Shown here in pieces: positions 1 to 48,950 of a stretch of DNA of 64,000 nt. Each line of letters opens with the position of its first letter. The first letter of the stretch is position 1. A model generated the notes under the pieces. It was not told the DNA's origin and ran no database searches. It saw nothing but the letters and a program-made list of their open reading frames with translations. The stretch comes from Cyanidioschyzon merolae (taxonomy: Eukaryota). The stretch is from assembly GCA_000091205.1 (NCBI GenBank), contig AP006494.2. One strand, written 5' to 3'. Made by a program: the position numbers and the translations under genes.

Positions 1-1542
1 GCACGTTTCACACTGCGACATTGCATCGAGTTTGATGCGGAAACCTTTCTATGTGGTATGATGAGCTCCATCGATGCCCTGGTCGGGGTCACGGCAACTC
101 GTGTGCGCTACTGGGACCTTGCCGACCTTGACGGGCAACCGTTTCTCTACGAGGCATCCCTGAAAGCGTGGCCCGTACTCCCGATGATCCTGAAATTGCT
201 GTTAGAAGATGGTGCTGACGATCTCGGCGTCACACACGTTGCTTTGCGAAACGCCCAGCAGCCGCAGTTCATGGATGCGCTGGAATGGCTCCTGTATCGC
301 ACAGCAGTAGCGGAGTCGAAACCAAAAGGGGACGACCAAGAACAGCTTTCCCTGCGTGTCGTGCGTATGCTTCGCAAGTTCGGTGAATACGAGGACATTG
401 TGGTGCACTGCGCTCGCAAAACCGAGGCATACAAGTGGCCGTCGCTTTTTGCGCTGGTTGGCGAACCCACTGCCCTTCTTGAACAGTGCTTCCTTAGTGG
501 CCGCCTGCGTACGGCAGCTTGTCTGCTCATTGTGCTTCAGGAGCTTCACGGATTGCAAGCGAGTGCCTTTCAAGCGCTGCGACTGTTCCAGGCTGCATTG
601 AGTTGTGAGGATGACGCACTCGCCAGGGAACTGATGGGTTACCTGGCTAGGATATCCGCTGATGAAGTCATGTCATCCGGGAGTTGTTCCGCTCGCGAAC
701 ATGCCTCAGCACACATTCCGCAAGGCGGAGCTGCCCGTTCCGAGAAACGAGACCACACCGCAGGGCAGAGCGCCTCGCGTGCTGGGAAAGTCTCCGGTCA
801 ACTCGTAGAATCGGGAGTGGATCACCAGTTTTTCCGAATGGCGGAAACGTCGTTGTTTACGTACGCAACGGAACTGCTCTGGCGATTCGAGCTCTATCGG
901 CTGTGTGTGCTTGCTGAGCGGTTGGGTTTCTCGCTGACCGAGTGGTTGCGTCGCAACTCCACCAGTCACCGGGAGTTTCGCGACTTGTACCTGGGTATCA
1001 CTTCAGCACGGCAACAGTTCCGGGTTGGTACGCCATCATCAGCAGCCGTCCAGCGCGCCATACTGGATATCCAGCATGCACGAGAAAAGCAACATGTCCT
1101 GTTATCGGAACTCGAGGCGACCCGGCGAAGACTGCAAGCTCTCAACCCGAGTCTGGAACATGCAGCCAAGAACGTGCAGAAAACTGCCGCTGCTGTTGAT
1201 CATTGTAGGAATGATCGCGATGACCATGGAAATGATGTTGGCACTGGCACTGATCACACCACTGGTATGCGTTGTCGCCATGACTTTGCCGCTGACGCAG
1301 CAACTGCCTTGGCGATAAGCATTCCATCGCTGATCTACCTGAAACGACTCGCGCAGGCCGCGTACGACGTGGACTATCCCAGTCTCGGGCTCATTCTTGA
1401 TACTCTTTTGCTGCATGGGCAGCGAATTTACCTGGTACTCCAAAGCCATCCTCATTACCAGGAGCCATACCTGCTTGCACTGCGCAAGTTTGATGAACCA
1501 AGTATGAGCGCATTGCTAGGGGCGCTTCAGCAAGCGCTCTAG
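1..1542 (+). CDS. RIC1: RIC1 homologue (RAB6 GEF complex subunit), C-terminal portion; the gene starts upstream of the window
   Basis: The frame is open from base 1 with no upstream stop, so the ATG at 58 is internal. The motif '[19 protein letters not shown] ... [50 protein letters not shown]' matches the conserved RIC1 C-terminal block 'FPHVLELLLH...[23 protein letters not shown]...AASYLIILQ'. The stop is at 1540-1542. Confidence 0.6.
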   Translation, partial: [513 protein letters not shown]

Positions 1543-2971
1543 TTTTGCGGTGTCTTGGAGATACCAGGTTGCGCGTATCTTGGCACCGTTCGCGCACTGG
1601 CATACCATGACTGTCTAAAGCTTGCACTGGTACGAGCAGAGCACATCGACGGTCAGGTTCAGTTGCATCAGACACGGGTCCTTCTGGGAACAGCACGCGC
1701 TCGGCAAACGAATCGGATTACCCGAGACTGCTCCAAAGGCTGGGGATACGGTCTCTGAACCCAGTCTGGGACGTTGTTTGCATAGTGGTGTGCGGCTCGA
1801 GCGCAAACCTGCACTCGCTCGAGCGAAACCTAGCGCAGCCACCGAGCCTGTAAAGAATACCTCAAGGCCGCAGGTTCTCCATCCAGAAAAAAAACGTCGA
1901 GACGAAAGCCATCGAAGAGGTGCACTTCGCGGGCTGCTTGCCTAAGTGAGTTCGTTTGTTCTTGCGTTCTGCGTATGAGCTACCCTCGTCCATCCTTGTC
2001 GCGAGATGCAGTGCCTTCTTGGATACCCTGCGCGGGACAACGACTCGGATACGGGATACCGAGTCCTGTGCACCGACCTCGATGGGTGCAGGTCCACCGA
2101 CGGTTGTATGAGCACCGGGTGTGCCCATTTCGAGACGAACGACCACAAGTTTAACGTTCGGTCATTGTTGTTGTCCTCGGGTGACGCGAGCTGACGTTCC
2201 GAACTTGTGTCCACCGGCGCTTGAGTGCCTCATGAGTATTCCGCCTCGAATCCAGGTATCTTCCTGGGCGCTGGGATTCCGGCGAGGTACGAATGACAAG
2301 GAGTGCTGCACAGATAGTGCAGGCAGGTCTCTCTTAGAAGAACCTGTGGCACCACATTCGCGAAGCAGCGTTGTTCATTGTGGCTCTTCAAAGGCACACG
2401 TCCGTTGCGGGCGATAACGAAACGAGACTCGTTTCACTATCGTACGCATCGTTCGACACCTGTGACGTCAGTTGTGCTCCATTGCAGCTCGCCAGGCGCA
2501 AGACATCACCGCGGGTAGAAAGCACGCTGATATTAAGAAAAAAGTGGCAAGCTTCCAGAAGCGCTCTCGTGACTGCAGCACGCTGCGACGCTACAACACG
2601 ATGCGCCCTGCTCTCTGCGAAACGATCCATGAAGAAAATAACTCAAGCCTCACCAATTGCTTTTCTGGCAACAGACACATAGATACTCCGGAGCAAGAGT
2701 GCCGCTTTGCTATGTTGAGAGCATCATCCTGCTGAGGTGTTTTCTATAACCAACACCAATCACGTCGCGTTCTTTTCCCTTATACGCTTCAGCGTGCAGC
2801 CGACGACGAATATGTATCCGAGAACATTCACGTTCTAGTCCACTTTTTTCCCCTAAATACTGGAAAGCGCTGCTGACGAAAAATCTCTATCCTAGCATAT
2901 CAAGATTAAGTCTGTTCTTCTCCCTGTATGCTGTACAATGCTCCGGAACCGGACACTGTGTCCGAAAACAC

Positions 2972-4543
2972 TCAATTCCGCTTGTTTTCCCTGTATGCTT
3001 GATAGCGCTTCTGAAGAAGCGATGCACATTCCGTTGGCGTCAGTGCCGGATTTGCTAGCTGCTCCTCGATCTGGAATTCCATGATTTCCCCAAGCAGAGG
3101 TCCGACGGGCAGTCCAGGAAGTAAACGACGTACTGCGTGACCATCAAGAAGTGGTTGCAGCTCGCAAGCTCGATCCAAGCCGGTCTCCTTGATCTTGTCA
3201 CGAAACACGAGATACTGCTGCACGATGGGTGTCTCTGAAGCGGTGGACTCTGTCGAAGCAGCTGCGCTAGCCATTGATGCGCCAGAATCGAGCCGCTCGT
3301 CCAAAGCCAGCTGAAGGAGCAGCGCTGCTTGCCACCAGGAACCAAGCGATCGAATCAGGAGTCCTACTTCAACCCGACAGGATCGCTCATTCCAAGCGAG
3401 CGGCTGCAGCACGAGTGTCCTAATCTTGCTGCACGCGGATAGCATGCTGAGAATCGCTTTCTTCTTCTGTTGTTGTACGCGCAGCGCATCATGCAGTATG
3501 TAAAACACAACAGAGCAGCGTTGATCCCTTTTGATTACATAGGAGATATCGAACAAGGGACTGAGGCAGGCTCCCAGAAGTAGCATCTGTCGAGTTCCGT
3601 CCTGCTGCCAAAGTTCAATACCCTCCTTGAGCCAAACGCTACCGAAGCGCTCCAGTCGCTGCACTCGCGTGAGTGCAAGCTCTGTCCAACGGTCGGGATA
3701 GGCGGATTCAGGAATCGACGGCGGCAGCGGAAAGAGGCACTTTGCCAGGCCCATGTCAAACAACAGCGAAAGTGCCATCACGGGTTGCGGGCCTCCCAAC
3801 ATCAGTTCCAGCTCCGTTGCGATACGCTCGCGACTCACCTTGCTGAGGAGCGCCTCTCGAACCCGGGGGCTAGAGGCCGCCTCCAGAACCTCCGGTACGA
3901 CGGTGAAGCCGAATCGACTTGCAAAGCGAACTGCTCGCAAGGCTCGCAAAGGGTCCTCCAAGAAAGTCGTCAACGGTGGCAGGGGTGTACGGATCAGCCC
4001 GGCAGCCAGATCCGTAAGCCCCATCCGAGTCCAGTCTTCCACCTGCTTCGTGTTGATGTTGTAGAAGAGGGTATTGATCGTGAGGTCCCTGCGAAAGGCG
4101 TCCTCCTCGGGGGTGCCGATCGCCATCGAGGGAATACGCGAGTCGGCAGCATACGATTCCTTCCGCAGGTTCACAAAGTCGATCCAGTGATCAAAGAGAC
4201 GCATACGGGCAGTCTCTAGGTGCTTGCTTTGCGCAGGGTTCACGCGGATCACGTGAACGGACCCTTGCTTCTGACCGCGCTCAGCGAGGAAAGCGTCTAC
4301 GCGCTCTGCAAACTCCCTTCCGAGCATGTTGTCGAGTGCGATATCAAGGTCTATCTGGTCTGCGCAGATACCGAGCAACTTGTCGCGAACCCAGCCTCCG
4401 GCGACTCGCAGCGTGCAGCCAAGGCGATAGGATGTATTCACTTCGAGCAGCAGAGAGAAGATTTGTTGTTCAATAGAACTGAGCTCGATCTGCACGAGCA
4501 ACGGACGGTTCAAGTTCCGTTCAGTTCCTGAAACACGTTGCAT
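2972..4543 (-). CDS. CCA-adding tRNA nucleotidyltransferase (class II, PolyA-pol head domain)
   Basis: 'IELSSIEQQIFSLLLEV...RVAGGWVRDKLLG...DLDIAL...DLTINTLFYNINT...EDPLRALRAVRFASRFGF' are the hallmark motifs of eukaryotic CCA enzymes. The ATG at 4543-4541 was verified (+ strand 'cat'). An in-frame upstream ATG at 5230 would add 229 low-complexity His/Gln-rich residues; the annotated ORF is 2972..5230. Confidence 0.8.
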   Translation of the reverse strand: MQRVSGTERNLNRPLLVQIELSSIEQQIFSLLLEVNTSYRLGCTLRVAGGWVRDKLLGICADQIDLDIALDNMLGREFAERVDAFLAERGQKQGSVHVIRVNPAQSKHLETARMRLFDHWIDFVNLRKESYAADSRIPSMAIGTPEEDAFRRDLTINTLFYNINTKQVEDWTRMGLTDLAAGLIRTPLPPLTTFLEDPLRALRAVRFASRFGFTVVPEVLEAASSPRVREALLSKVSRERIATELELMLGGPQPVMALSLLFDMGLAKCLFPLPPSIPESAYPDRWTELALTRVQRLERFGSVWLKEGIELWQQDGTRQMLLLGACLSPLFDISYVIKRDQRCSVVFYILHDALRVQQQKKKAILSMLSACSKIRTLVLQPLAWNERSCRVEVGLLIRSLGSWWQAALLLQLALDERLDSGASMASAAASTESTASETPIVQQYLVFRDKIKETGLDRACELQPLLDGHAVRRLLPGLPVGPLLGEIMEFQIEEQLANPALTPTECASLLQKRYQAYRENKRN

Positions 4544-11780: not shown

Positions 11781-11860
11781 GTATCCCGTCGGCTGCGGAT
11801 CAGTTCTGGGCATTCTCGCGCATCGACTCATGTCGGATTCATATAGAACGGATCCATTAA

Positions 11861-12928
11861 CTCTGTCGCACACTCTAGCGTTTGGGCCTCGTTCCCTGGT
11901 CATGAATACCAGCACTTGCGGGTATTTTATGCAACTGCTCCCGCTTTCCTATCCCTATCTCTGACTTTAAATACGCTGGTGTCTCCTTTCCTTACAGCTT
12001 CGTTGTACGAAGACGAAGGATGTTGATCGTGAGATTGGAGCCCCAACTTCGCAGCCCCGATCTGTTGTGCAACTATGCCATGCACACCCGGGAGTTGCGA
12101 TCTACGGTTCGCATGCCACTTGCATCTCCCTAGTATACGGAAACAGTGCGCCCTTCACGGCTGCGAAACTTGAATATGGTCAGGGGTATCCCATGGTTCC
12201 CCGCTGGCCCTCCGAGCACCACTACATGGCGCGTGAACGCCCGTTTCATCGCTCGGTACATGCCCTTGACGGATGTAGGAGGATTGTATGGAAGCGTCGC
12301 TTAGCGTCTGCACCCGGTGGCCGTTCCAAGCGATCACGGGCTGCCTCTGGGTGATACGTGCTCCACTTACGTCCTCGGTGCACTGCATATGCAAACACGT
12401 GTAGTCGCATTTTTATGACGTGACTTGTGGAACGCATCGTTGTCCATCATGCAACAGGTATCGGGAGGAGAATCCAGGTTCGGGATCCAGTCCAGCACTA
12501 CCGATTCGTCTGGACTCCACTCCTGCAATGCAGAGTCAGACGCTGCACCGGCGGCGGTCGCTGTGATGACTCACGTCCGAGTCCGAGGCCACATCGACGC
12601 AAAATGAGGACTTGAGAGCGTCCGGGAGCATCGCCGCTGCGTCGAGTCATGCTGCCGCCACACGTCATTTTGTCGATGCGCGCCACGAGAAAACGACGCG
12701 TGTTTCCAAAGCAAGCGATTGGTTGGAGTGAAAGGTTCAATAAATTAGCTGAATGAGGTTGTGAGCAATTCGTCAACCGCCAATGTCGAGAATTTTTTGT
12801 CGTTCATCCAACGGAGCGAATCGCAGCGTCCTCGAGTTGCCCCGGAATACAATGATCAAAATCGTGGGGTGAACGTGATTCGAGCATGCCACAAGTAAGG
12901 GGAGAAGTCGAGTGGAGGCTCTTGTATA
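11861..12928 (+). repeat. Dispersed ~1.07-kb repeat, copy A; direct repeat of copy B (29525-30590) at about 99% identity
   Basis: Base-by-base comparison of 11861-12928 with 29525-30590 gives about 12 mismatches over ~1045 bp. The embedded 95-aa ORFs 12067..12354 and 29731..30018 differ at 2 residues. Both copies begin 'ctctgtcgcacactctagcg'. Confidence 0.9.
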
Positions 12929-13346
12929 AAAATTCTATTGTGATCTCCGTTATCTTACGAACTCTTACCCGAGAGGCGTCGCGAATCATCTCAGTTCCTG
13001 TCACCAAACGCGTCCCAGCAACACGGAGTCGGACACGACACTTCAAATCGACGACAGAGCGTCCTAAAACTCGTATAAATCAGTAAACACCAACTGGTCG
13101 CACATCGGATCATGAGAATGCACATGTAAGAGTGAGCGAAAAGAACGAAGTGCAGAAACAGAGCGCCCAGTACAATGGACAATTTTCATTTGAAATAGCT
13201 CGTCGATGAAACAAAAGTTCATGTAAGATAAATGAATTCCGGCAGGGAGATGCTTCTCAGCCTTTTCGGTAGGCCCGCTGCTATTGGTTTGCGCTTCTCC
13301 TGGTAATCATCGAGCCTGAGAGGCTGCCCTACGATGTTGGCTCGCG

Positions 13347-15412
13347 TCAGCTCTGCGGGCTCGTCTCCAGCACCGCACACCGTCTGATATTGAAGGCCGC
13401 GTCAAAGTCCCGGTTCACAAACTCAACGCGTTTCTTTCTGTTGGTGTAACACACCAATTCAATGAGTCCTCGAACTCGTGCCCTCATTGCCATTTGTTCT
13501 CCTGTCAGATCTCTGTACTCTTGTAAATCCTCCGGGCTCCGCTGGCACTTTTCCATCTAGACCTCCTGATGTGTACACCCCAGCTCATGGTGCATATAGA
13601 ACGTTCGGAAATTCATCAATGGGTATTGTGACAAAACCGTGTGCGCACTTCTTATACGTTCTTGTCGTTGGAGCTGGTGTACACCCTTTTTTCGACATCC
13701 AGCGCCCTACTCCGTATGCTACTTCGAGCCTTTGATCCTTGTCCGCCTTGAGGGCGCTAAACTCACTGAAAAATTTCGTGAATGCACCCTCTTTCCTCCG
13801 TACAGTTTCATGCGCAGACGAGTCCACCGGGGCTTTGCGTACTCTTGCCACAACTCCTCGTCATGAGCAGCTTGAGTTTCTATGAATTCTAGAAAAGCTT
13901 CAAAGTCCGCTCCTCTGCTCGCCACCTGGCTGATCACTTCCAGGTGCTCCTTCACTGCTGAACTCAACGTCTCACTTTCCATCGTCGCATTCATTACTCC
14001 CTAGTCTCTATCGTATCTCGCTCTTTCGGACTTTAAGGAAACGTACGTCTTTTGGGGTAAGCTGCCGTCGATACGATATTCCCCATGCTTGGATGCTGCG
14101 ATGGTCATGATAGTCGTGTTCCCGGGGTACGGGCCGATTACGACAAAGGCGTTCTTGTCTATCTCCTGCGTCACAGGACCCGCCTGCTTTTTTTCATCGT
14201 GCTTTGCCGAGGGCGATATCGAAAACACAACAGGACGATCCGCCTTCAACAGCCGATCGTGTACACATATGGCTGTTCCATCGGTTTCGATCATCCCAGT
14301 AAATACCTTTTTCTTGCTCGTATTGAGACGTTTGAAATCGAAGATATTCTTCCAGTCCGTCTCTCGGTTTCCGCCGGTAACTCTGTTTTCCTTACATCGA
14401 ACTCCGGACAGATCTCCTTCATGATGCTGTAAATGGCGCTGGAGTCGATGGTCACAAAATGTGACTTGATGTTGCATAACGGAACGACAGTGAAGCGCTT
14501 CTCCATTAGGAAAGATATCCGTTCCAATGAACCTGCTTTTTTCTCAAACCCAGCTGCATCCCCGCCTTGCGTTCAAGTTCTCGCTCCGAAGAAAAAAGAA
14601 ATAGCACAGGATGAGGGGATAGCATCTTTTTCCATCTTTCTTCATATCTGATGCCTTTTCTGCAGGGTTGACACGCCCCAAGATTGCACCGTGCTCTTTC
14701 ATAGCCGCACGGATTACAGAAGCTTCATTCTTGCTTCTGCGTGATATCCTCTTGTCAACTAATTCGATCTCCTATTCATGCTGGCAATCGTTCGTGATGC
14801 CATCGATGATGGCCCGTATCCATTTGCAAGAGAGGCCCGGGTAGCGTGTCAAGACGCAGCGTATCATGAAGCGTTTGAGATTCACAATCATATGGCTATT
14901 CCGGTTCGTGAGGTCCTTCATCGCCCCGTATTCGTAAATAGGCGAGTCAGCTTTGTATCGAGTGTCGTTGACGCGGTATTCGGCGTAATTTTCGCGCAGG
15001 GCATGCACTCGCTCATCTCTCCACAACAGGTCCCTTGTACCAAGCATCAGGTGGCTGAGAAAGCTCTTGTTGAAAAATTGTTTCGGATTCTCGACTGTTT
15101 TTATGTCCGTTACATCCTCTTCCAGCTCCTTCACCAAATACATTGATCCAGTAGACGCTTTCCAAGTTCAAATCGAGTAAGACGTCACATGTTTATGATC
15201 CACTCTTGCATCTTTTGCTTATAGGGATCCTTGATGTAACCTCCACGAAAAGCTTTGACCACCACCTCGTCGTATTGTCGTCTGCCGTCTAGCTTTCGAA
15301 GGCCGGCCTCCTGCCTCCGATCCTTCGTCTTCTCCTGTTCCGCTTTCCTCGGCACTGTTTTTTCGTCTCCGGCAACTGGTGACATCAGACTACCTGGATC
15401 CTCAGCTTCCAT
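13347..15412 (-). pseudogene. TnpB/Fanzor-like RuvC nuclease remnant (element 3), fragmented across frames
   Basis: ORF 13347..13556 ends in the RuvC-III signature 'LIELVCYTNRKKRVEFVNRDFDAAFNIRR' (D at 13409-13407). ORFs 13585..13851, 13719..13994, 14001..14477, 14291..14527, 14772..15143 and 15185..15412 are colinear but frame-shifted ORF pieces on the same strand, with a possible degenerate RuvC-I '[10 protein letters not shown]'. The segment is AT-richer than the flanking genes. Confidence 0.5.
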
Positions 15413-16556
15413 GTCCTTAACTTTCCTTTAATTATTTCTGAAAACGAACGCTCTTTGAATGCTTCTGCTATAAATCGCGAAAATCACTTTGATGCCCTAA
15501 TCTGAGAATGGAACACAACTGCATTGAAAAACGATACTTTGCTATGGGTGTAACGCAAATATATGTTGTACGCCAGAGCAACATACTGATAATATGGATC
15601 GGGTTTCTCTTCAACGGGGAAATGCGCTTCGTCTCTCATGCCGGCCAGGTATGAAGGTGCGAGTATATACCGCGCTTTATCGAAAAAAGAACAGAAACTG
15701 ACTACCAACTAGAAACTCGATAAAAACTTCGTTCCAGCACTGAGATACCCATTATAATTGGGAGCATTTTCTGTATTTTCGAAAGTCTTCCTTCTAGACG
15801 AGGGTCCCGCGAGTTGGACGATTCTGCCGGGCTAGTGCATCATGATCCCCAGTGGCGGATGCTGTAGTTAGACCTGGGCAGCTCATCCGAAACGCAATTC
15901 ATTCTGGGGCTATGAGCGGTTATGCCGTGTCTGGGCATCGTTCAGGTCTCAGTGGTCTCCTATCACATGGCTTTGCACCGCTGCATAGAGTACGTCTATT
16001 TGCACAAATTGGAGGCTCTCATCTTGATGATGGATCACGATTCTGTGACTAATGAACCACATCTTGAGCCGAGGCCTTCAGTGGTACAGCAATGCCGATC
16101 TGTATCCGTGCAGCACCGCAGCACCGGAATAAGCGCTATAGCGGGTGCAGGAAAGCGGGTATTCGGTGCACGATAGATCATACAAAACAACCAGTATATC
16201 CGAGAGGAACTACGGATGATAGAACCTCGAGGTGGGACGCAGCTTTATGGACGCTCCCGAATGCCAGTATCCATCCCGCACGCTGGGCTCCGTAGTCTAC
16301 GGAAACGAATCGCCAAACCAAAAATTCAGCAAAAAATCCTCAGGACAAGTCAGTACAAATTTATCAATAAAGATACTAAATGGAACCTGCCGCTGGATCG
16401 CTCCTGTCTGAAGCGCTGACGAAGCACTTGATTCGCAGCGTTGCGTAGCCTCCCCGCTGAGACGCAGTGCAGCGAAGCAGGTCCGTGGCTCCTACCTACC
16501 CGAAATAGGGTTCCTGTTCCGGTTAGGAAAGAGTGAAGGTTGGGTAAGCAGAATTC

Positions 16557-18482
16557 ATGAACGTTTTCGAGGAGGAAATTGCGAGAGCGGTGGCTCTTAC
16601 CGAACGGGCAGTGCTGACGCGGGAGCCGCGCCTCATCGCCCGTGTCCTGCGCTCGCTGGGGAAGCTAAGACGGTGCTGGAACGGAAGACTCTTTGAGCAT
16701 CGTACCAAGAAACTTGAGGCCCTTGTTGCATCTGAAATCATTGCGGTTGATCTCTTTCCAGAGGACGCCGAGGCGCTGAAAGAGGAGCAAAGAAAGAAGC
16801 AGCGGGCACGTCAAACGTCCAGTACCGGCGCTGAGCAGACCGGCACCGACTCGACGAAGACGGGTCAGAAAACAGGAACGCCCGACGAAGCATCAGAGAC
16901 ACCAGTCGAAGAGACTAACGGTAAATCCGAACGAGAGCTTGGCGCTGTTCAGCGTTTCGAGTACGCGGTGAAGGACCCGGTGCTCGCTGCACAGCACGCG
17001 CATGCCGCACTTCGCCGGCTACTGGAGCGGTTGGAGCAAGGCGACCCGAGCGCACACAACGCAGTCTTGCTCGAAGATGTAGATGCGGCACTAGAACCGC
17101 TCTTGTCACGTAACCAACGCGCCGCCGCTGCGGCGAAGGGCCTTGGCGTGGTGCAGCCTTTGGCTGCTACGCGGTCCGAGGCTAGTATGATCTTGTCGAA
17201 CGGGGTTTCGACGGATTCGCAGCCAAACGAAACAGCTGCTGCTGGACTAACGAAGCAAAATGCAAACGCTCGCCAAATGTCTGGAGTATCGTGGCATGCG
17301 CTTCAACCGGAGAGCCTCGTGCTTTTGCATCTGCTTGTCGTCTACTACCTGCTCGACGCACATGGTGACCATAAGCTGCAGCTCCGTGCCGTGGACTGCG
17401 CGGATCGCCTGATTTCGCTCTTGGATCGAAGTCCTCGGCGACATACCATGGACGAAATCGCAGCACGCTGCTACTATGCTTTTACGCTGGCCTACGAATG
17501 CGTTGGACGTCTTTCGGAATGCCAACCGCGCTTGCTGAAGGCTTATCGCACTGCTTGCGTTCGTCGCGATCACGCTGGTCAAGCCGTGCTCTTGAATCAG
17601 CTGCTTCGCTCCTATGTTCTGGAACGGCGCTACGCGCAAGCGGATCAATTGTACAATCGCGCTCCATTTCCCGACATTCGGAGCAACAGTCAGCTGGCTC
17701 GCTATTTCTACTACATCGGACGAGTGAAAGCTATACAACTGGATTACACAGAGGCATTTCGTTGCTTGAATAACGCGCTGCGCAAAGCGCCTCAGCACAT
17801 GGCGACTGCGTTCCGGATAACGATTCTGCGATTGCTGGTACTGGTCCAGTTGCTCATGGGCGAAATTCCAGAGCTCCAAGTATTTCTTGGAGAGCGCTAC
17901 GCTCCTGATGCTGCTGTATTTCGGCGAGCCATGTACCCTTACTTGCAGATTGCAAACGCAGTACGTCGCGGTGATCTCCAACGTTTTCAGCAAGTACTTG
18001 AGGAGAATGCCACCTGCTATGAACAGGACGGCAATGGCTATCTCGTTCGGCGACTTCGCCACAATGTCATCAAGACTGGACTTGCTCGCATCGTGGCTGC
18101 CTACGCCCGCATTCCTCTGAAGGAAGTTCAGGAGATTCTGGGCCTGGATGATAGCTCCAGCACCGAGAATGTGGTGGCGAAGGCCATTCGTGATCGGGTC
18201 ATTCGGGCAAATATTGATCGGGATCAACAGTGTCTCGTGTCGGCGAGCCAAACTGACCAGTACCAAGGTCGCGAGCCGGCACGTATGTTCCATGAACGGA
18301 TTCAGTTTTGTATGGACCTCCATGAAGAGGTACTTCGCGCGATGCGCTTCCCAGACGACAAAAGAAACGAAGCCAACCTCGAGATCTTGCGCGAGATGCA
18401 ACGCGATGAGGCCAAGATCGAGCAGGCGCTCGCTGAAGGAGCAGAACCCGGCGACGAGGACGATACCGATGATATCCTCTAA
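16557..18482 (+). CDS. RPN3: 26S proteasome regulatory (lid) subunit Rpn3/PSMD3, PCI domain protein
   Basis: The full-length 641-aa ORF carries the PCI-domain block 'LLRSYVLERRYAQADQLYNRAPFPD...ARYFYYIGRVKAIQLDYTEAFRCLNNALRKAPQ...GYLVRRLRHNVIKTGL...' typical of Rpn3. ATG verified at 16557. Confidence 0.9.
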   Translation: MNVFEEEIARAVALTERAVLTREPRLIARVLRSLGKLRRCWNGRLFEHRTKKLEALVASEIIAVDLFPEDAEALKEEQRKKQRARQTSSTGAEQTGTDSTKTGQKTGTPDEASETPVEETNGKSERELGAVQRFEYAVKDPVLAAQHAHAALRRLLERLEQGDPSAHNAVLLEDVDAALEPLLSRNQRAAAAAKGLGVVQPLAATRSEASMILSNGVSTDSQPNETAAAGLTKQNANARQMSGVSWHALQPESLVLLHLLVVYYLLDAHGDHKLQLRAVDCADRLISLLDRSPRRHTMDEIAARCYYAFTLAYECVGRLSECQPRLLKAYRTACVRRDHAGQAVLLNQLLRSYVLERRYAQADQLYNRAPFPDIRSNSQLARYFYYIGRVKAIQLDYTEAFRCLNNALRKAPQHMATAFRITILRLLVLVQLLMGEIPELQVFLGERYAPDAAVFRRAMYPYLQIANAVRRGDLQRFQQVLEENATCYEQDGNGYLVRRLRHNVIKTGLARIVAAYARIPLKEVQEILGLDDSSSTENVVAKAIRDRVIRANIDRDQQCLVSASQTDQYQGREPARMFHERIQFCMDLHEEVLRAMRFPDDKRNEANLEILREMQRDEAKIEQALAEGAEPGDEDDTDDIL

Positions 18483-19537
18483 TAGTGCTCAGCTATGACG
18501 TATAAATGATTTCGCATGGTATTCGAGAAGCACACCAGAGGGTCCTGCATCCATGCCGTGCGAAATGCATGGTGACTTCGGCGTTGACCGCACGCCTATA
18601 TTCAGAGCAATGCGGTCTGGAGCACAGCTGCAGTCGCGCGTTTTTGTTGGCTTGGTTTTTTGACGGGCTTTCGGAAGAGAAATCTATCTTTTAGAGTGGA
18701 GAAAACTGGCGGAAAGCTTTTAGGGTGTCATTGCTAGCTGGCGAGAAATGGCCTGACTTGCTCAAGCCAGACATTTTACGGTCAGCAACTGGATGAACCA
18801 ATGTGCTCTTGGTGCCTATTCTGAACGTTGCGTGCCGAAAACGGGGCAAACGGAACCCAGTAAACACATGGTTATCTGCTGATCAATCCATTCCATTGCA
18901 TACGTAATCTGGGAAACACCACAACAGAACGCATAGTTTGTGATACTTCCGTGCCGTTGGTCCCAAACGATGATGAAATGGTGTGGACGGACAAGAAAGA
19001 AAGTACTTTTCTCTTGATGATCGACGAGATCTGAACAACATATGACCGATTTCGTAGTAAGAACGGAACCGCGTACCACAGGAGGCACTAGTCTTTGTCT
19101 TACGTGGCGAGAGTTTATCCGGGAAAAGTGGTAGACCTGCATATGTGTACTGAACTAAAGACAAATCCGATGTTCGCAAAGAAGAGGCAAACGAGCATTC
19201 CGAAACCATCAGCACCAGTGGCGATGCTATCCTATGGTCGTCAACAAGTCGCCAAAAGGATACGATCGTTCTATAGCGCATGCTTCATCGACGCTTTGTG
19301 CGACATTATCTTCGCATACTCCGCTAGTCTGCTCTCAGAGTGCGTATCATTCCGCAACCCAGAAGTATTTGAGGACTATGCTGGTTAGATTGGTGCTCAG
19401 CTGATCTCTGTGCCAGGCTATTCGCGATGGAGCACACCGGTCGAAGGCGAGTCCTCCTATGCCGAACGTCCTTTCTATGCTGAAGAATCAATAGACGGGT
19501 ATTTCGCATTTTATCGAAAGCGAAAGCTACGGGACGC

Positions 19538-20146
19538 TAGGAATGATCGAGCAGCTTCGTACTCGAGGGAGGCTCATCTGGCATTCCTCGCCTCGACGTA
19601 GCTCGCTCAGCAAATATCCGCAGGAGCTCTGGACGCAGCTCTGCAAGCTGTCCAGATTCTTACGGAATTTATCCATCAAACTTTCGTGCTTGAACACAAC
19701 GCATGTTCGAGACAGAAGATGCAGCACGGCCTGACCGTTGGACCAGAGATTTGCACATGCGCTTCGCGGAAAATTCTCGACGCTCCGCAGTGCGACGTTG
19801 CCGGTCGAAGCGTCTCCAGCACAGGTGTCAAAAAGGTTCAAACACGCCTGAAAATCCTAAACTGTATATTGTTCAATGTCGAGGGCGTCGTGAATTTCGC
19901 CTCGTGGGCGTTGCACCCGCAGCACACTGACCCAGACATATGGGCTCTGGAGGAAGGAACTCTTGGCGTGACAACGGGCGCGAATGACGAGCTGTTGCCA
20001 AAAGAGATCAAAGAGGTAGCGAGCATCGACGAGATGTTGCAGCCAGAGCGAGCGTCGCTTCAGATCATCGGATCTTATCGTGTTGCTCTTGATCTCGGAA
20101 CGATGGGCGTCGTATGCAAAGGACGCTTCAAACATGAGGTCTGCCT
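19538..20146 (+). repeat. ~610-bp segment about 97% identical to 40446-41052 (inverted), shared by Fanzor-like copies 1 and 2
   Basis: The DNA and the embedded ORFs are near-identical: 19686..20180 '+' against 40202..40894 '-' (MLEHNACSRQKMQHGLTVGPEIC...IIGSYRVALDLGTMGVVCKGRFKHEVCL) and 19543..19734 against the end of 40846..41325. Both flanks diverge sharply beyond these coordinates. Confidence 0.85.
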
Positions 20147-20911
20147 TCCATTGACAAGCCGTACTATGACGTTTTCCTGAACAAAGCCCTCGAGAGCAAA
20201 CAGGATGTTCGCCCCGATGCCGAGCGCTCGGATCTTGCTCAGGCGTTTATTTAATCTGGTATCTATGTGGCACTTCAAGACCCTGCGGATCAGTGTAGAC
20301 ACTTCTGTATTGTACGGAATGACCTGTTCAATGCGGCACGGCTACTCTCTTGAAGCAAATATAAAGCTTTCGAACAAATTCGCAAGCAGCATTGGCGGAG
20401 ACGATCCAAGTTCCTCGTTTACGAGGGGGGATTCGGAACCGAGTCTCTTTCCAGGAGGTGCGCACTCGCCAACTTGTTCAATATTCTCGAAATGGAAATG
20501 ACCGATAAGCCGCGTCGCTCTTATTGGCAGCGAATGGCGCTGCCCGTGCTGTATTCCACGAAAGCCGCACCCCGACTCTACCGACGACAGCGACAAACGT
20601 TTGCAGGAATCGATTCTGTACGATCTCTGTCGATAAGTACAGGGCGCCGGATACCTCCCATGACCGGAGCATATGACCACGCTGAAACTGGTACAGAAGC
20701 AGAGTCGAAACCGAACCGCAGTCACGAAACGGTCGACTCTCATTTGAGCTAACTCCAGGTATCGAGACAATTTGAGTTTACTGCCCTGTTAAAATGTGAT
20801 TGCGCAAGCAACCAAGCGCACAAGCATATGCTGCATCGAGACCTGAACGCCTCGATCAACATTGCGAAATGTGTCGTGCTGCAGGAGCCTCAAACGGCAC
20901 TGTGTCGATAA
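19538..20911 (+). pseudogene. TnpB/Fanzor-like RuvC nuclease (copy 1) with RuvC-I, RuvC-II and RuvC-III recognisable but interrupted
   Basis: Frame 0 (19602-20180) gives '...LQIIGSYRVALDLGTMGVVCKGRF', a RuvC-I GxDxG-like motif with D at 20091-20093. Frame 2 gives 'LFNILEMEMTD' (RuvC-II glutamate at 20489-20491) followed by 'YWQRMALPVLYSTKAA'. After an in-frame TAA at 20750-20752, frame 2 continues with 'KCDCASNQAHKHMLHRDLNASINIAK' (RuvC-III, 20834-20869), and the stop is at 20909-20911. Confidence 0.65.
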
Positions 20912-28230: not shown

Positions 28231-29524
28231 CGTCCGATCGTAGACGACATGTCTAGCGATCTCAAGCCGTCCTCCGTGGTGAGGCGGAAGCAGCGATGCA
28301 GGCCTGCGCCTCGCAAAGACTCCGGTAATGACCATGCTGCACAGCATCCTGGATACCTGGTGACGCAGAGGCGGTCGCTGCTGCTCCGGGAATGCACCAT
28401 AGCGAACACGCGCACAGCCGTTCGCAGCGGCGCTGGTCGAATACAACGCCCACCTGCACGGAAATAACACGCTGGAGAAGCACCAGATGGAGTTACCAAC
28501 AGGCTGCGAATTCGCGGTATCCGTTGTCGTCGTCGCACCTGAGACGTGTTCTGCTCATTGACATGCCCGAACGGAAGCATCCGGACTCGATTTCGTTTCT
28601 CCAGTGCACACCGCAGCTGTGAGATCGTTCCCAGCAGGCCATGAAGCTCGTCAGTCTTCGCATCCGCAGCAGTGCTTTAGGCTAGCAGGTCTCAGCGCAA
28701 ACGGCGCTGCGCGTTATGCTCCACTCGACGTCGTTCTAGGCTGCGCGTTGGCGTCAACTGTCGTCGATGTCGGTGCATCGTGCGGCGTCGCGATGTCAGC
28801 CTGTGGCACCCGCCTTGCACCCGTTAGCTTCATTCGAATTCACGCGTGTCTGGGACACAGCTTTGTAGGCAGCGGCGACGAGTCCGGTGGCGCTTCGGCA
28901 CTGCCAGCAGCAAGCTGCGGTGCCGATGCCATTCCTCCCCATGGCGCCAGACGCATCGCTCGTGAGTGCGAGCTTGCACCAGACCGGGTTGGGGACTGCT
29001 TTTCCTTCTGCCTGCTGTTTTGCTCTATGCATTTTCCGCGTTATTCACTATTTCCAATTTCTGTATCTGGAAACAGTGCAGTACCTCGCGGGCATGACGG
29101 ACGCCGCAGCAGTTTTTTCTGCTCGGTGTTTCGCAGGTTCAAGACGCAAAAGCCTTCGGTTTGCTCTGGTCTGCGCCCCAGTTCAGTCTGCGTAAACCTC
29201 ATAGGCTCTGCTTTCGTTGACACCCGTTAGGGCACAAGGTAATACCTTTCAAGTTTCGGAAACTTGTTGCGCATAGCGGAACGCTTTTCCTGTCGCTGTG
29301 GCAAAGCAGTGTCAGGGATTTCGCCGAAGATCAAAACCTTACCAACCAGCTCCTGTTTCCATCGCCCGAAACAGATCCGAACCGGGATCCGGTACGAAGC
29401 ACGTTCGCAACCTGGATAAGAACGCAAGGCCTAGTTAGATGCAGTGCGAAGCCAAAAAACGTTGTTTCTGTTCGCTCCTAACGTATTCCAGCAGTCTCAG
29501 ACGATAACGGAACAGGTCTTCTAG

Positions 29525-30590
29525 CTCTGTCGCACACTCTAGCGTGCGGGCCTCGTTCCCTGGTCATGAATACCAGCACTTGCGGGTATTTTATGCAACT
29601 GCTCCCGCTTTCCTATCCCTATCTCTGACTTTAAATACGCTGGTGTCTCCTTTCCTTACAGCTTCGTTGTACGAAGACGAAGGATGTTGATCGTGAGATT
29701 GGAGCCCCAACTTCGCAGCCCCGATCTGTTGTGCAACTATGCCATGCACACCCGGGAGTTGCGATCCACGGTTCGCATGCCACTTGCATCTCCCTAGTAT
29801 ACGGAAACAGTGCGCCCTTCACGGCTGCGAAACTTGAATATGGTCAGGGGTATCCCATGGTTCCCCGCTGGCCCTCCGAGCACCACTACATGGCGCGTGA
29901 ACGCCCGTTTCATCGCTCGGTACATGCCTTTGACGGATGTAGGAGGATTGTATGGAAGCGTCGCTTAGCGTCTGCACCCGGTGGCCGTTCCAAGCGATCA
30001 CGGGCTGCCTCTGGGTGATTTGTGCTCCACTTACGTCCTCGGTGCACTGCATATGCAAACACGTGTAGTCGCATTTTTATGACGTGACTTGTGGAACGCA
30101 TCGTTGTCCATCATGCAACAGGTATCGGGAGGAGAAACCAGGTTCGGGATCCAGTCCAGCACTACCGATTCGTCTGGACTCCACTCCTGCAATGCAGAGT
30201 CAGACGCTGCACCGGCGGCGGTCGCTGTGATGACTCACGTCCGAATCCGAGGCCACATCGACGCAAAATGAGGACTTGAGAGCGTCCGGGAGCATCGCCG
30301 CTGCGTCGAGTCATGCTGCCGCCACACGTCATTTTGTCGATGCGCGCCACGAGAAAACGACGCGTGTTTCCAAAGCAAGCGATTGTTTGGAGTGAAAGGT
30401 TCAATAAATTAGCTGAATGAGGTTGTGAGCAATTGGTCAACCGCCAATGTTGAGAATTTTTTGTCGTTCATCCAACGGAGCGAATCGCAGCGTCCTCGAG
30501 TTGCCCCCGAATACAATGATCGAAATCGTGGGGTGAACGTGATTCGAGCATGCCACAAGTAAGGGAAGCTGAACTTTGGAGGTTCGCACA
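29525..30590 (+). repeat. Dispersed ~1.07-kb repeat, copy B (direct repeat of copy A)
   Basis: See copy A. It lies 17.66 kb downstream of A in the same orientation. Confidence 0.9.
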
Positions 30591-37535: not shown

Positions 37536-38847
37536 GACAGCGCTTCTAGCGCTGCTTGATGGAAGCGTTTCAACCCAAGTGTGCGAGCCTGAAAACGAAC
37601 GAACACCGCTCTGCAGCAGATTGTCAAACTGACTATGAACCGCGGACGCTGCGGCATCGGTTTGCCTTTGTGGCCGCGCTCGCCGCCGCCAAGACTTTGT
37701 TGCAACACACGTCGTGTTACCGCTGCGACCCGCTTCGTATTCGAGCGATACTTGGCTTGGGTACGATCATCATCGACCCTGAGCTCTATGTGTTCGTGGA
37801 AATCATGGTCAGAGAAGCGAGTGTTCTGAGTTATATTGAACAGCGGAACGCGACTATCGATCCTCAGTTGCCCATGGATAGTGTTCTCGACGTATACAGA
37901 TGAAGCTCGATCCTTTCTGGGGTGCACAGCGGCACCGTGCCTGTTTCCTGCTCCAGCCGAGAATCTAATCCTCTTTTCCAGGTCAATGACTTTTTTACAT
38001 CGGGTGTCTGCAGCGTCTCACAACCAGGCGCGTACTGAGGCCGAAATGATTCCCTGCAAAGTTCATTTGACATGAATGTATTGGGGGCTCCAGAGGCACG
38101 ACATGTTGCCGGAAGTCGATTTTAGGCGGTGAATTCGAGGTGCGAAACTAGCTTTTGTGCGTTTTTGCTCATGCCATCTCAACATAGCACGTCTGTCATC
38201 TCCGATGGCTACGTCGTCTGATATTTGCTCACCCTGCCGCACACTATGCCCTGCGTTCCGATGTGTTCCGCGCATCTCTCCCGAGCCTGTACCAGCGTGA
38301 ATATAAGCCCATGAAGCGTTTGTGCTGTCCTGAGCACACTGATGGGGATCGATTCCCGCAGTTGTTGTATGCTCTCGTCGGCGGTGTACGAGTACAGCCC
38401 TTGTGCACTGCGGCGCGTCCAGCGCTATGGACTTGTACACAACGACTCGACGAATTCTGCCATATGCGTTGCGAAATCACTAAAGAACCTGGCGAATGCA
38501 TGATTCATGGGTCCGTACAACCGAAACCGGTCGCTCTCCCAGCGCTGTCTCATGTACTCAAGCAAAGAATCGTCGGCCTGAGCCATCTGGATACTCTGGT
38601 GTTCTCCCAATCGAGCGTTTACAGTACATCCAATGCTCGACACGGTACTCAGAGCGTTTAAACGAACCCTGGGGACGTCATCCCTGTTGCTCGTACGCCT
38701 CCTGGCGTCTAAAACGACCGGCGCCTGTTGGTACCGAGCCCTCGAAAAGTTCAGCAGGTTCATTCGCTTTCCCGTTTATCGGATCTGTGAAACGATAAAC
38801 GTTTCACGACCGTATCGTGCACACATACACCCATTCGCAGCCGCCTT

Positions 38848-41052
38848 TCAGCCTTTTATGAAAGAATGACTGCTATAGGCTTTCAGTTTCTCCTTGCACA
38901 CGTCGAGTCGGAGAGGCTGCAGCAAAAATTTGTATCTCGTCAGCTCTGCAGGTCTCTTCTGCGGCACCGCATATCTGCTGAAATTGATGGCGGCGTTGAC
39001 GTCCCGGTTCACGAACTCCATGCGTTTATTGCGTCTGGTAGATCTCATTAGTGCAATGGGGTCTCGGATTCGTGCCCGACCCCCATGAGCGACTACAGTC
39101 TCGTCAACTTCCCGCCGTGCAACCAGATTTTCTCGCCAATCAGCATTCTTCTCCTTCTTCTTTGACACTTGCGCTTCTTCGCTGGATGTTCGGCAAGCAG
39201 AGGTTTTTTCCTTTGCGTCGAACGCAGACACAGCGGGCTTCCGGGATCCTCTACTTGCATTTCGGTACCTATTCCCTGGATTTTTCCTTCTACATGAACG
39301 CACTCCTATATGCTCTTGATTGAGGACCTTCCCGGATGGAGGTGGACTCGATGCAGACACACGAAATCTGTCCCGGTATCAAGGTGAGTTGAATGCTTCA
39401 GCGATTCGCCCAGTGGAGCAAGCATTCGTATTCTCGACACTAGAAACTCCTTCGATGACGTTGAAACTCGCAGAGCTTACGTAGGAAACAAAAGCAGCTC
39501 TAGTCCTCGACAGATTCAGCAAAAGCTCGAACGCGAGTGGATTGGTAAAATACCGTGTTGTCTAATGGAAGTACGTCGCCAGACGTCAGGGAAAAGTCTT
39601 CTGTGATGCGACATAGTGGTTGGTGCTGGTATATGAGACTTCGGTACAGAGGAAACTGGAGCTGCCGAATGAATCCACTGCAGCTAGGAGAGCTGCTGAT
39701 GTCATCGTTCTCTTCGAATTTGATCGTACATAAAATTGGCTCTTTCACCTCGAGTATCCAGATACGCTCCGACCGTTTCATCCGAAGCAAGTCTCATCGA
39801 CTGAAGAAACAAATCGACGTCGGTCTATTTCATACCGATCGAGACGTTCCAGGAATTCTTTCGTTGCGATACGAGTAAAAGATGGCCGTGATTGAAACTG
39901 AACTCTACGTGCGATGGTGTTCCGGTTTTTTCCGGACCATAGGCACAAGCTGTAGAGAAACAGAGACCCACATGGCGTCTCCTGTTGTCGCTTTTGGTTT
40001 CCGTTAAATTAGATCAACGGGTCATTTTCAAACATTGAACGCAAGCAGTCTCTGGAACTATCGGTTACTGGCGCGGAGCGCAAATACTGCTTCTGTTCAG
40101 TGCTCCTCAACCATCTGCCTACTGTCGTGTGACTGACCTGAACGAGGGATGCAAACTTCGCAGCACTTTTCATGAAGGACTATATATATCCTACAGACGA
40201 TTTATCCACGGTCCATACGGTATACTGCATGGTGATTTCGATCTCCGGATATACACTGCTGCGGAGGAATCAAACACATTTGATTTGAAAGAATATAATG
40301 GGCCTTGATGTTCGAAACAGGGACCGAATCGAATACAAGCTTGCAGCGTCTTGGGCGATAGGATCCTCCGAGGGATTCCTTTCCGGTCTTAAAGGTACTG
40401 TCCAGCAAAGCGCAATGGCACGAGATGTTCCTAAGGCAGACCTCATGTTTGAAGCGTCCTTTGCATACGACGTCCATCGTTCCGAGATCAAGAGCAACAC
40501 AATAAGATCCGATGATCTGAAGCGACGCTCGCTCTGGCTGCAACATCTCGTCGATGCTCGCTACCTCTTTGATCTCTTTTGGCAACAGCTCGTCATTCGC
40601 GTCCGTTGTCACGCCAAGAGTTCCTTCCTCCAGAGCCCATATATCTGGGTCAGTGTGCTGCGGGTGCAACGCCCACGAGGCGAAATTCATGATGCCCTCG
40701 ACATTGAACAATATACAGTTTAGGATTTTCAGGCGTGTTTGAACCTTTTTGACACCTGTGCTGGAGACGCTTCGACCGGCAACGTCGCACTGCGGAGCGT
40801 CAAGAATTTTCCGCGAAGCGCATATGCAAATCTCTGGTCCAACGGTCAGGCCGTGCTGCATCTTCTGTCTCGAACATGAGTTGTGTTCAAGCACGAAAGT
40901 TTGATGGATAAATTCCGTAAGAATCTGGACAGCTTGCAGAGCTGCGTCCAGAGCTCCTGCGGATATTTGCTGAGCGATCTACGTCGAGGCGAGGAATGCC
41001 AGATGAGCCTCCCTCGAGTACGAAGCTGCTCGATCATTCCTAGCGTTCTGCA
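38848..41052 (-). pseudogene. TnpB/Fanzor-like RuvC nuclease (copy 2), fragmented
   Basis: ORF 40202..40894 (-) carries RuvC-I 'IIGSYCVALDLGTMDVVCKGRF' (D at about 40489-40487). ORF 39500..39790 (-) carries 'RIWILEVKEP' (candidate RuvC-II, comparable to copy 1 'FNILEMEMTD'). ORF 38848..39360 (-) ends in 'RRNKRMEFVNRDVNAAINFSRYA' (RuvC-III, about 39003-38962), which is highly similar to the element-3 C-terminus 'NRKKRVEFVNRDFDAAFNIRR'. Confidence 0.6.
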
Positions 41053-42951: not shown

Positions 42952-43548
42952 GTGTCGAAAGATATTGGCTGTTGCGTTCAATGCCCGATTTCCTTGCAAC
43001 CGACTGTTGTGGACATATTTGCTTCACAGGCGGAAGTTGCGATCTGGGCGTCACTCGCATTTTTACGCTGCTCTGCAGGTAGGCACGGTGCATCCCTCGC
43101 AGCGGTGACACCTGCGAGCGGTTTGATGTTCCCGTGTATCCACCACATATCCCACTGCTCCGAATGCTACTCTGTGGTGCGTGGACGCTTCCATCATCGC
43201 TCTGTGCAAGCGCTTGACGGGTACAGAAGGCTCGCGTCTACGCCCAGTTCCGTTTCTGCGCTCGATGCCGTACCCTGCGAGCACGGGCTTCTTCCAGACG
43301 ATTTCGTCGACGAGTACGCTGCCGTCCGAACACGAGGGCGCGAGCGCTTCCATTCCGTAGAGGATTTGTCGATTGTGATCGTGCGCTTGATGAATCAAGT
43401 ACCGGAAAGAAAATCCATGCTAGCGATGATGCCGCAAACGACGGATCCGTCTAAGCTAGCATCGTGCCAGTCAGTGACGCACGCTTCACAGGAAGCGATC
43501 GCTGCGATGATTCAGGTACGAGTCCATGACCTCTTCCATGCAACATGA
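42952..43548 (+). repeat. Divergent third copy (C) of the 1-kb repeat family, preserved at the protein level
   Basis: Copy C reads 'EVAIWASLAF...CYSVVRGRFHHRSVQALDGYRRLASTPSS...CEHGLLPDDFV' and copy A reads 'GVAIYGSHAT...HYMARERPFHRSVHALDGCRRIVWKRRLASAPGG.../SDHGLPLGDT'. DNA identity is about 70% with mostly synonymous codon changes (tcg/tct, gcc/gcg, gga/ggg, agg/aga). Copies A and B carry a frameshift relative to C. Confidence 0.45.
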
Positions 43549-44778
43549 AGAGTCGGAAACCGCCAGGAGCATATCCCGTCAGATATTTATCATACTGCTG
43601 TCGAATCCCGCTTGATCGATGACCACAAAGAGATGAGAATTCATATTTCGAACAGAATCTGCAATTTGAAGCAGCAAGTTCAGTGAACCTTCGGCATAAA
43701 CAAGTGAAGATACTGTCAAGCGGCGACGGCCAGTTTCTTCCTCGTCAATCGAGCCGCGTGAATTACTGTGGCAACGAGTTGCCTCGAAACCGGCGGATCG
43801 AAAAGATATACAATACGGCATTTCAGCATGCGACATGTAAGGAAAGCAAGCGACTGGAAGCTCATTGGTAAGCATTGGCTGGCGATCTCTGGAACAATAC
43901 GAACTATGTTTCGAGTGCATCGGGAATCACGTTGATTCCGATGAAGTCATGAATTCCATCGGGAAAGCGTCCTCGGATCCACCCAGAATACTCAGCAGAA
44001 CATCCTAAAACTACCAGTGAATACGTAAGCCCATACTGCTGGACTTGGAAAGCAGAGTCTGTGCAATGAAACCTACTTCCGAATAAAATCCATGAACCGA
44101 GCGAGCAGTTCAGAATTGGATCTGACTCTGGCACGGATGTAGCACGTCAGACGTATCGAAGTAGTCTTTGCCCCCGTAACCCTTTTTTGCGGCTTTTTTC
44201 CGAGTATCCGCATAAAACCTGAGGGCGTGCTGCCGGTGCTGTAGTGCGCAAGCTGTTCCAACGATAAAAGGTTTTCGGCTACGGCAACGCCGTCTACTTT
44301 CCGTGGCACCAAGCGCTCGGCACTGTCACCCAATAGGCTCCGGGTCTTCGAACGCGCACTCGCAGCGAGACGAGCGGCTTTTCCCGCCAGGTGCTTCACT
44401 ATTCTCGGTGTTATGCGGGTAATGCACTCGACGGGCCTGGTCGAAACACATCTGGGACTCTATTGATGAGGACGGTCTTGTTTCTTAGAGGCCAGGCTGT
44501 GCGAACTTGGAGTCACGCATCTCAAAGCAGGGTCCTGAACTGGTGGAATCTCCGCATGCCAACCGACGGAAATCCAACCCTAACCACGGACGCCTGTGTG
44601 CCTGAACGCACGTCCCCCGACCATACCCGCAGTTGTGCACGTCGCTTCCCGTGCTTCATCTACGCTTGACAGGGACTTGAAGGTGCGATCGTCCGGTCTG
44701 TTTTTGCAGAGCACAGTGGCTCAAATTTTTACATTTTTTGGTTTGGTTTTGGTTTTTGGTTTGTCGCTCAGCCTAGGC

Positions 44779-48730: not shown

Positions 48731-48950
48731 GTGAACACTGAGCTGCATTGTCGCGCTTCCGCCAACGGTCGATGCGTACGAACGATACTGACGCGCGCAG
48801 CGCCGCCTCGGCGATGCCAACGATGCGCGCTGTTCTGGGCGGCGCGCGCCACCGGCGATCGCCACTCGTAACCAGATACGGCATACACGAACGCGACGAT
48901 TGAGGTGTGTTGGCTCAGAGGTGAGGCATACCACCGGGTTATAACGTTTG

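Follow-up and report, generated by a model that had tools for sequence, protein, structure and literature searches.

TnpB and Fanzor1 proteins are RNA-guided DNA endonucleases that take their guide from the end region of the transposon (PMC10432273). [quoted passage not shown] Each CMe-1A copy is ~80% identical to the consensus and lacks terminal inverted repeats (TIRs); target duplications were left undetermined, and the family was not placed in any transposon class (PMC3627910). The 5′ 635 bp are 95% identical to a separate element, TE-N2_CMe, and although the family is old, some of its members still code for intact proteins (PMC3627910). A 3169-bp CMe-1A consensus and the 734-aa CMe-1 protein are given in Additional file 2 of the same paper (PMC3627910). 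The element family treated here has been known since that publication in 2013, which covered the consensus sequence as well as the encoded Fanzor1.

The consensus gene is a single, intronless exon of 734 codons, and the consensus of the family retains all three catalytic motifs of the nuclease (GADPG, DEFRTS and NRD). The element stops 59 nt past the stop codon, and this short tail holds a 7-bp hairpin (GCCGCCA..TGGCGGC). Moreover, nt 5–14 form a 10-nt inverted match with nt 3098–3107, a value reached by four of 2000 shuffled sequences.

A decayed CMe-1A copy upstream of RPN3

Our analysis concerned a 64,000-nt stretch of C. merolae DNA (the window), whose encoded proteins include sequences identical to BAM80737.1, BAM80738.1, BAM80741.1 (RPN3) and BAM80745.1 of strain 10D, located on a chromosome of 859,119 bp. 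The mixed orientation of its genes speaks against a kinetoplastid host, and these exact matches also set aside Nannochloropsis or a diatom. An earlier note, made from the sequence alone, had described a nuclease remnant at 13347–15412, within an AT-rich insertion between an AAA-ATPase gene and RPN3. The pieces that it listed are real, but the feature is larger: the tail of the reading frame continues to 13219, and the element as a whole covers approximately 13137–16312. By blastn, nt 12–3012 of the CMe-1A consensus match the window from 16307 down to 13317 with 78.4% identity, and a global alignment of 13137–16312 to the consensus gives 78.3% identity over 3176 bp. End-to-end alignments to the consensus place the termini at ~16312 and ~13137, the latter to within some tens of bases, owing to the heavy decay of the final ~150 nt. 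The parts of the element are as follows.

13137..16312, minus strand: whole CMe-1A copy, decayed; 3176 bp compared with 3169 bp in the consensus, both ends approximate
15650..16312, minus strand: 5′ non-coding module, corresponding to consensus nt 1 to ~635; inner boundary approximate
13219..15412, minus strand: Fanzor1 (CMe-1) pseudogene as assigned by homology, from an ATG at 15412 to the stop codon of the last piece at 13219–13221
13137..13218, minus strand: decayed 3′ terminal region, 3′ of the stop codon, delimited by alignments to the end of the consensus

We conclude, with a probability of about 95%, that 13137–16312 on the minus strand is one old, fixed and non-functional copy of CMe-1A, a ~3.2-kb Fanzor1-carrying element of C. 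merolae. Copy and consensus stem from the same host, show 78% identity over the full 3.17-kb consensus, a divergence that is usual for this family, and share the same layout with a 5′ module of ~640 bp, a single-exon Fanzor1 reading frame, a short 3′ end and no TIRs. In contrast to the consensus, the copy in the window is dead, as it carries frameshifts, stop codons and an Asp-to-Tyr exchange in RuvC-I.

The ~640-bp 5′ module is found in only some of the family copies, namely L001, L003 (a reverse copy) and L020. Others begin at what corresponds to window position ~15648, indicating that the module is separable in related loci. This would fit the relation to TE-N2_CMe as described in the literature. 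Relative to the consensus, the window copy has a 6-nt deletion at its 5′ terminus, while its 3′ terminus has gained insertions and lost the hairpin: the subterminal GCCGCCA..TGGCGGC structure is unrecognisable at 13137..13218. A search for a terminal inverted repeat joining the two ends of 13137–16312 found none. The single inverted pair near the ends (13057–13069 with 16244–16256; 13 nt, 85%) falls beyond the 3′ boundary of the copy, and the consensus shows nothing equivalent.

The base composition bears out the description of the insertion as AT-richer than its surroundings. The element has a G/C content of 48.6%, lower than that of the AAA-ATPase gene (57.2%), of RPN3 (55.9%) and of the window overall (55.2%); in 1-kb bins the interval ranges from 46.5 to 49.7%, versus 54–58% around it. 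Scanning the entire window for tRNAs yielded none, and the NCBI protein numbering (BAM80738, BAM80741) suggests that no gene is annotated between the AAA-ATPase gene and RPN3. Four environmental contigs with 99.2–99.4% identity to the window all carry the same insertion, indicating that the copy is old and fixed. No empty insertion site is present among these four contigs, so that the ends of the element cannot be fixed in this way. A further contig, L019, hints at an inversion of ~20 kb, with junctions at 20147/20148 and 40432/40433 of the window.

The start codon of RPN3 (ATG at 16557) follows the 5′ end of the element (~16312) after ~245 bp. This position, together with the retention of the insertion in environmental strains, is what speaks for a co-option of the dead copy as regulatory DNA of RPN3. 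We consider such a role very improbable; neutral DNA would be kept at 99.3% identity just as well in closely related strains.

Homology and decay of the Fanzor1 gene

The open reading frame 13347..13556 on the minus strand, with which the earlier note had started, is present and terminates in ...ELVCYTNRKKRVEFVNRDFDAAFNIRRCAVLETSPQS; the stretch around its RuvC-III Asp codon at 13409–13407, also confirmed, reads ...VEFVNRDFDAAFNIRRCA. We joined the pieces manually, with correction of the frames, to a reconstruction of 407 aa. It matched 136 proteins, all of them from JGI or ENA metagenomes; identities were 50–62%, and the best match had E=8.6e-123. These homologues share the motifs ..FVVGADPGNTNI.., ..VVAYGAGRW.., ..IPVDEFRTS.. 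and ..MEFVNRDFNAAINIRRCAVLE.., and some of them contain the Pfam family DUF8286. Homology extends to the N-terminal pieces (up to 15412), whose counterparts lie upstream of the homologue genes.

Pfam scans of the single pieces and of the 407-aa reconstruction returned nothing relevant, and phmmer searches of the PDB with the reconstruction or the CMe-1 consensus gave no match. The link to known structures came only through a wider profile. A search of 1.84 billion representative proteins with a profile of 30 close homologues detected 1772 relatives, many of them 600–740 aa long. With a narrow profile of 30 sequences, the match to SpuFz1 was no better than E=1.1. Profile A2, which was built from 46 relatives including close homologues of the window copy and has 628 positions, matched Fanzor1 chains only in the PDB: PpFz1 of Parasitella parasitica (9cf0, E=2.4e-20), SpuFz1 of Spizellomyces punctatus (8gkh, 3.9e-13) and GtFz1 of Guillardia theta (9cer, 2e-5). 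In these matches the motifs TDG, DPG (RuvC-I), DEFRTS (RuvC-II) and NRD (RuvC-III) are aligned. No TnpB or Cas12 structure of the PDB was recovered by A2 at E≤1.

The homology of the fragments, which the earlier note had proposed to check with HMMs, holds over nearly the whole profile. The minus-strand pieces match A2 in order, from window position 15340 (profile position 4) to 13353 (profile position 594 of 628), with a best single-piece E-value of 4e-23. In tblastn searches with family proteins, the successive pieces occupy frames −1/−3/−1/−3/−2/−3/−2, i.e., there are six frame changes. As judged from these alignments, the colinearity of the pieces is far beyond chance, and the earlier description of them as colinear in different frames is borne out. 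Together, the colinear A2 matches and the Fanzor1 matches in the PDB mean that the Fanzor reading was correct. By homology, the nuclease of the element is a Fanzor1, a TnpB-like RuvC nuclease. Its putative RuvC/WED/REC fold is taken from sequence homology because the structure prediction was unusable: the AlphaFold2 model of homologue P0002, based on a 30-sequence alignment, has a pLDDT of 37.

RuvC motifs are common to Fanzor and TnpB, and three of the ten scanned relatives show a sub-threshold match to Pfam PF07282 (Cas12f1-like TNB; best E=0.0023). Both observations would also fit a relic of TnpB from a prokaryotic IS200/IS605 or IS607 element that arrived by horizontal transfer, rather than a eukaryotic Fanzor. 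We regard this origin as extremely improbable in view of the exclusive recovery of Fanzor1 chains by the PDB profile search, the length of the protein (734 aa) with its long basic N-terminal extension, the lack of a TnpA-like gene or domain among the neighbouring reading frames, and the fact that the element is a eukaryotic repeat of ~150 copies (PMC3627910).

With the Fanzor1 assignment in place, the nuclease motifs of the window copy could be located by alignment.

14205..14231, minus strand: "VVFSISPSA" linker ahead of RuvC-I; aligns with DRPVPPSA.. of the family, non-catalytic
14118..14135, minus strand: RuvC-I, GPYPGN in place of GADPGN, with Asp changed to Tyr (TAC, 14129–14127); aligned with CMe-1 and environmental homologues
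13603..13620, minus strand: RuvC-II region, IDEF(+1 nt)RT; Glu codon retained (GAA, 13614–13612), with a 1-nt insertion directly after that breaks the frame
13386..13418, minus strand: RuvC-III box VNRDFDAAFNI; Asp retained, aligns with NRD of PpFz1 and SpuFz1

The segment "VVFSISPSA" had been taken for a RuvC-I motif with Ser in place of the catalytic Asp. It turned out to be the linker, whereas the true RuvC-I lies at 14135–14118 and has Tyr for Asp. At this motif the environmental homologues read ..VVGADPGNTNI.., which aligns with DPGR/DPNK of PpFz1 and SpuFz1. In environmental copies, we also observed that the linker before RuvC-I is expanded to 1–6 tandem units of ~25 aa. RuvC-II aligns with VDEFRTS of the family, IDEFRTS of PpFz1 and LDEYKTS of SpuFz1.

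A "Cys pair" and the zinc finger that it suggested were misread, as only single Cys residues are present. CxxC..CxxC is absent from CMe-1 and from all 59 examined relatives of at least 500 aa; CMe-1 has HH-x3-C-x10-C, and the wider relatives have only "WC.ST". The CMe-1 clade thus lacks the C4 (CCCC) finger that is expected of a Fanzor1 between RuvC-II and RuvC-III, in contrast to SpuFz1 and TnpB, both of which carry a CCCC finger (PMC10432273). The CMe-1 clade would accordingly represent a zinc-ribbon-less variant of Fanzor1, with its membership based on homology.

Decay of the gene extends over its whole length. Global alignment to the consensus revealed 12 frameshifting indels in the reading frame, of which ~9 are robust, with uncertainty for the ones that fall within the final ~100 nt, as well as at least four in-frame stop codons at consensus codons 85, 217, 473 and 621. 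In addition, 264 of the 723 comparable codons (36%) differ from the consensus. The D ... E ... D catalytic set (D-x(125,275)-[TS][TS] ... RD in the pattern of Bao and Jurka) is incomplete in the window copy. On these alignments we classify 13219..15412 as a Fanzor1-family pseudogene and not as an active member, consistent with the earlier proposal of an inactivated remnant.

Could the locus nevertheless be live, either by producing a Fanzor1 with the help of introns, of RNA editing or of programmed frameshifting, or in the form of a domesticated derivative? Some CMe-1A copies do still encode intact proteins (PMC3627910), and the window copy retains the RuvC-II Glu and the RuvC-III Asp. However, a live gene would have to cope with the six frame changes, the stop codons spread across the whole reading frame, the loss of the RuvC-I Asp and the exchange of more than a third of its codons, in a family whose consensus gene has a single exon and at a position where the protein numbering points to no annotated gene. 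We therefore give this explanation next to no weight. As a pseudogene with a broken frame, without its first catalytic residue and with a decayed 3′ end and hairpin, the copy is inert intergenic DNA.

The 1047-bp repeat and the 3′ boundary of the element

Next to the element lies a repeat, copy A, which spans 11858–12904 (1047 bp), has sharp ends and is 98.6% identical to 29522–30568. The earlier note had let it end at about 12928 and had read the repeat, or the interval 12900–13350, as an omega-RNA or right-end module of the nuclease element. The position is suggestive, as copy A is located 3′ of the nuclease remnant on its coding strand, ~0.3–0.4 kb from the end of the reading frame. However, the consensus ends only 59 nt beyond the stop codon, and the window copy ends at ~13137, i.e., 232 bp short of the repeat. 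In line with this boundary, the similarity among environmental copies from different genomic sites breaks off where the consensus ends. The proposed comparison with the 3′ flanks of the other two Fanzor remnants in the window likewise failed to reveal a common module: the sequence that they share stops inside the tail of the reading frame.

The distribution of the repeat also argues against an association. No match to copy A was detected in the first 15 fetched loci with family copies, which were all that were searched, and profile A2 found no Fanzor remnant beside the second repeat copy at 29522–30568. A third, weak relative of the repeat, near 43.2–43.9 kb, is located 5′, not 3′, of another Fanzor remnant.

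The suggested search for a structured RNA gave no support either. On the minus strand, the single-sequence fold of 12905–13320 is less stable than those of shuffled sequences (z=+2.06), i.e., there is no excess of structure, and an Rfam scan of the whole window at gathering thresholds had no match. Eleven family copies share a conserved 3′ sequence with possible hairpins. RNAalifold on seven family copies yielded a covariation term of +1.15, which is no support, and a hand-drawn four-hairpin structure on the 11 copies had 81.4% paired cells compared with 80.4% in shuffles, with a covariation score that was no better.

Because element ends, repeat distribution and fold tests all point the same way, the repeat and the spacer at 12.9–13.1 kb are placed outside the element, and a guide-RNA or right-end function of either for the Fanzor element is very unlikely. 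The 1047-bp repeat is a separate repeat family, and neither it nor the spacer 12905–13136 is a module of the CMe-1A copy.

CMe-1A among Fanzor1 elements and related transposons

The CMe-1 family resembles PpFz1 (9cf0), SpuFz1 (8gkh) and GtFz1 (9cer) in its colinear WED, REC and RuvC regions, with significant profile similarity. By analogy to these three proteins, intact CMe-1 (734 aa) would bind a guide RNA from the 3′ end of the element and cut matching DNA; RNA guidance of CMe-1 is thus predicted by homology. The elements themselves differ, since that of SpuFz1 has 33-bp TIRs and TA duplications (PMC3627910) and CMe-1A has neither.

CMe-1A also resembles CRe-1, CRe-2 and CRe-3 of Chlamydomonas reinhardtii, non-autonomous Helitron2 elements (Bao and Jurka 2013, PMC3627910) that likewise carry only a Fanzor1 gene, reach high copy numbers and lack TIRs. 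The CMe-1A consensus has its 3′ subterminal hairpin, and its 10-nt inverted match recalls the asymmetric terminal inverted repeats of Helitron2. In a comparison based on the described layout, however, the 3′ match lies 62 nt from the end in CMe-1A versus the published 20–30 nt (PMC3627910). Elements of the IS200/IS605 type with TnpB, e.g., ISDra2, share with CMe-1A the order of the RuvC motifs, the lack of TIRs and a right end that contains a hairpin. In contrast to them, CMe-1A has no TnpA, and CMe-1 is a far longer protein that is extended at its N terminus; the family profile recovered no TnpB structure of the PDB.

More intact relatives, which the earlier note had proposed to look for, exist elsewhere. 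Environmental contigs from wild Cyanidioschyzon contain long open C-terminal reading frames that cover the larger part of the nuclease half, with RuvC-I, RuvC-II and RuvC-III all included. Two near-identical family copies (L008 and L010, 98.4%) were found at two different genomic sites.

For the family as a whole, it is conceivable that CMe-1A represents a still-active Fanzor1 lineage without the CCCC finger, which would move in a hairpin-dependent, TIR-less manner (Helitron2-like or IS200/605-like) and draw a guide RNA from its conserved 3′ end. The long open frames in wild populations, the L008/L010 pair, and the 10-nt match together with the 3′ hairpin hint at this, although we hold it to be a speculative and rather unlikely reading at present.

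For the annotation of C. merolae, our results allow a CMe-1A pseudogene copy to be entered in the intergenic region that separates the AAA-ATPase gene from RPN3, with RuvC-I now placed correctly, and they speak against annotating the adjacent 1-kb repeat as a guide-RNA module. As a discovery the copy is of small value, being one of ~150 decayed copies of a family published in 2013. The zinc-finger-less clade, the recently moved environmental copies and the end structure of the consensus could be useful for testing this red-algal Fanzor1 for activity as an RNA-guided nuclease.

Domain features and ends of CMe-1A

The region from RuvC-II to RuvC-III lacks a CCCC zinc ribbon throughout the CMe-1 clade (P0001–P0267). 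CMe-1 itself, the Fanzor1 protein of CMe-1A, carries HH..C..C between these two motifs, and all that its wider relatives retain is a “RGLLWC.ST” motif. Immediately N-terminal to the RuvC-I Asp, environmental CMe-1 genes encode a ∼25-aa unit (..KHEEKKEAGPATQEVQDNDFVV..) present in one to six tandem copies, as seen in loci L001, L005, L010 and L026 and in proteins P0001, P0004, P0009 and P0012; the window copy and the CMe-1A consensus each have a single unit.

In the CMe-1A consensus, nt 5–14 and nt 3098–3107 form a 10-nt inverted match (GACAAAACGT / ACGTTTTGTC), which pairs the 5′ tip with the final codons of the ORF. A comparable match arose in just 4 of 2000 shuffles. Its equivalents in the window, at about 16308 and about 13230, are both decayed. 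A 7-bp hairpin lies 15 nt downstream of the 3′ match and ∼22 nt before the 3′ end of the consensus. The layout is reminiscent of Helitron2 ends, but the spacing differs.

Further repeats in the window

Matches to the family profile, built from 46 relatives of the window copy's protein, revealed additional Fanzor1-family remnants, rearranged or with internal deletions. DNA-level similarity to the CMe-1A consensus persists in 38903–39056 alone (75.8%); the remaining remnant sequence resembles CMe-1A at the protein level only and may represent an older subfamily.

Repeats and remnants in the window
20241–20908, +, Fanzor1-family remnant
38337–38766, −, Fanzor1-family remnant
38902–39099, −, Fanzor1-family remnant
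40271–40777, −, Fanzor1-family remnant
19534–20147 and 40433–41046, inverted arms, 614 nt each, 98% identical
11858–12904 and 29522–30568, 1047-bp repeat, pair 98.6% identical
about 43175–43929, weak third relative of the 1047-bp repeat
48531–48630 (77%) and 48670–48731, tandem fragments like the CMe-1A consensus over its first ∼100 nt

The two tandem fragments may be 5′ termini of the type found in TE-N2_CMe, a separate C. merolae element. The 1047-bp repeat family is without a long ORF and showed no connection with the Fanzor element. The metagenome contigs L017 and L018 end within this repeat, as expected of a multi-copy sequence.

Possible rearrangement and movement in wild populations

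Both 614-nt arms are portions of another Fanzor1-like remnant. The environmental contig L019 matches window positions 16256–20147 and then continues with the reverse complement of 41046→32099; with this join between the arms, the ∼20.3-kb inter-arm segment would be inverted in the sample that yielded L019. The 10D order is retained in contigs L016 and L018. The L019 arrangement reflects either a genuine inversion polymorphism or a chimeric assembly.

The environmental copies at L008 and L010 are 98.4% identical and occupy two distinct genomic contexts, one beside an IF-2 gene and the other beside a DAO-domain gene. Such identity at separate sites suggests that the CMe-1A family has moved recently in wild Cyanidioschyzon populations.
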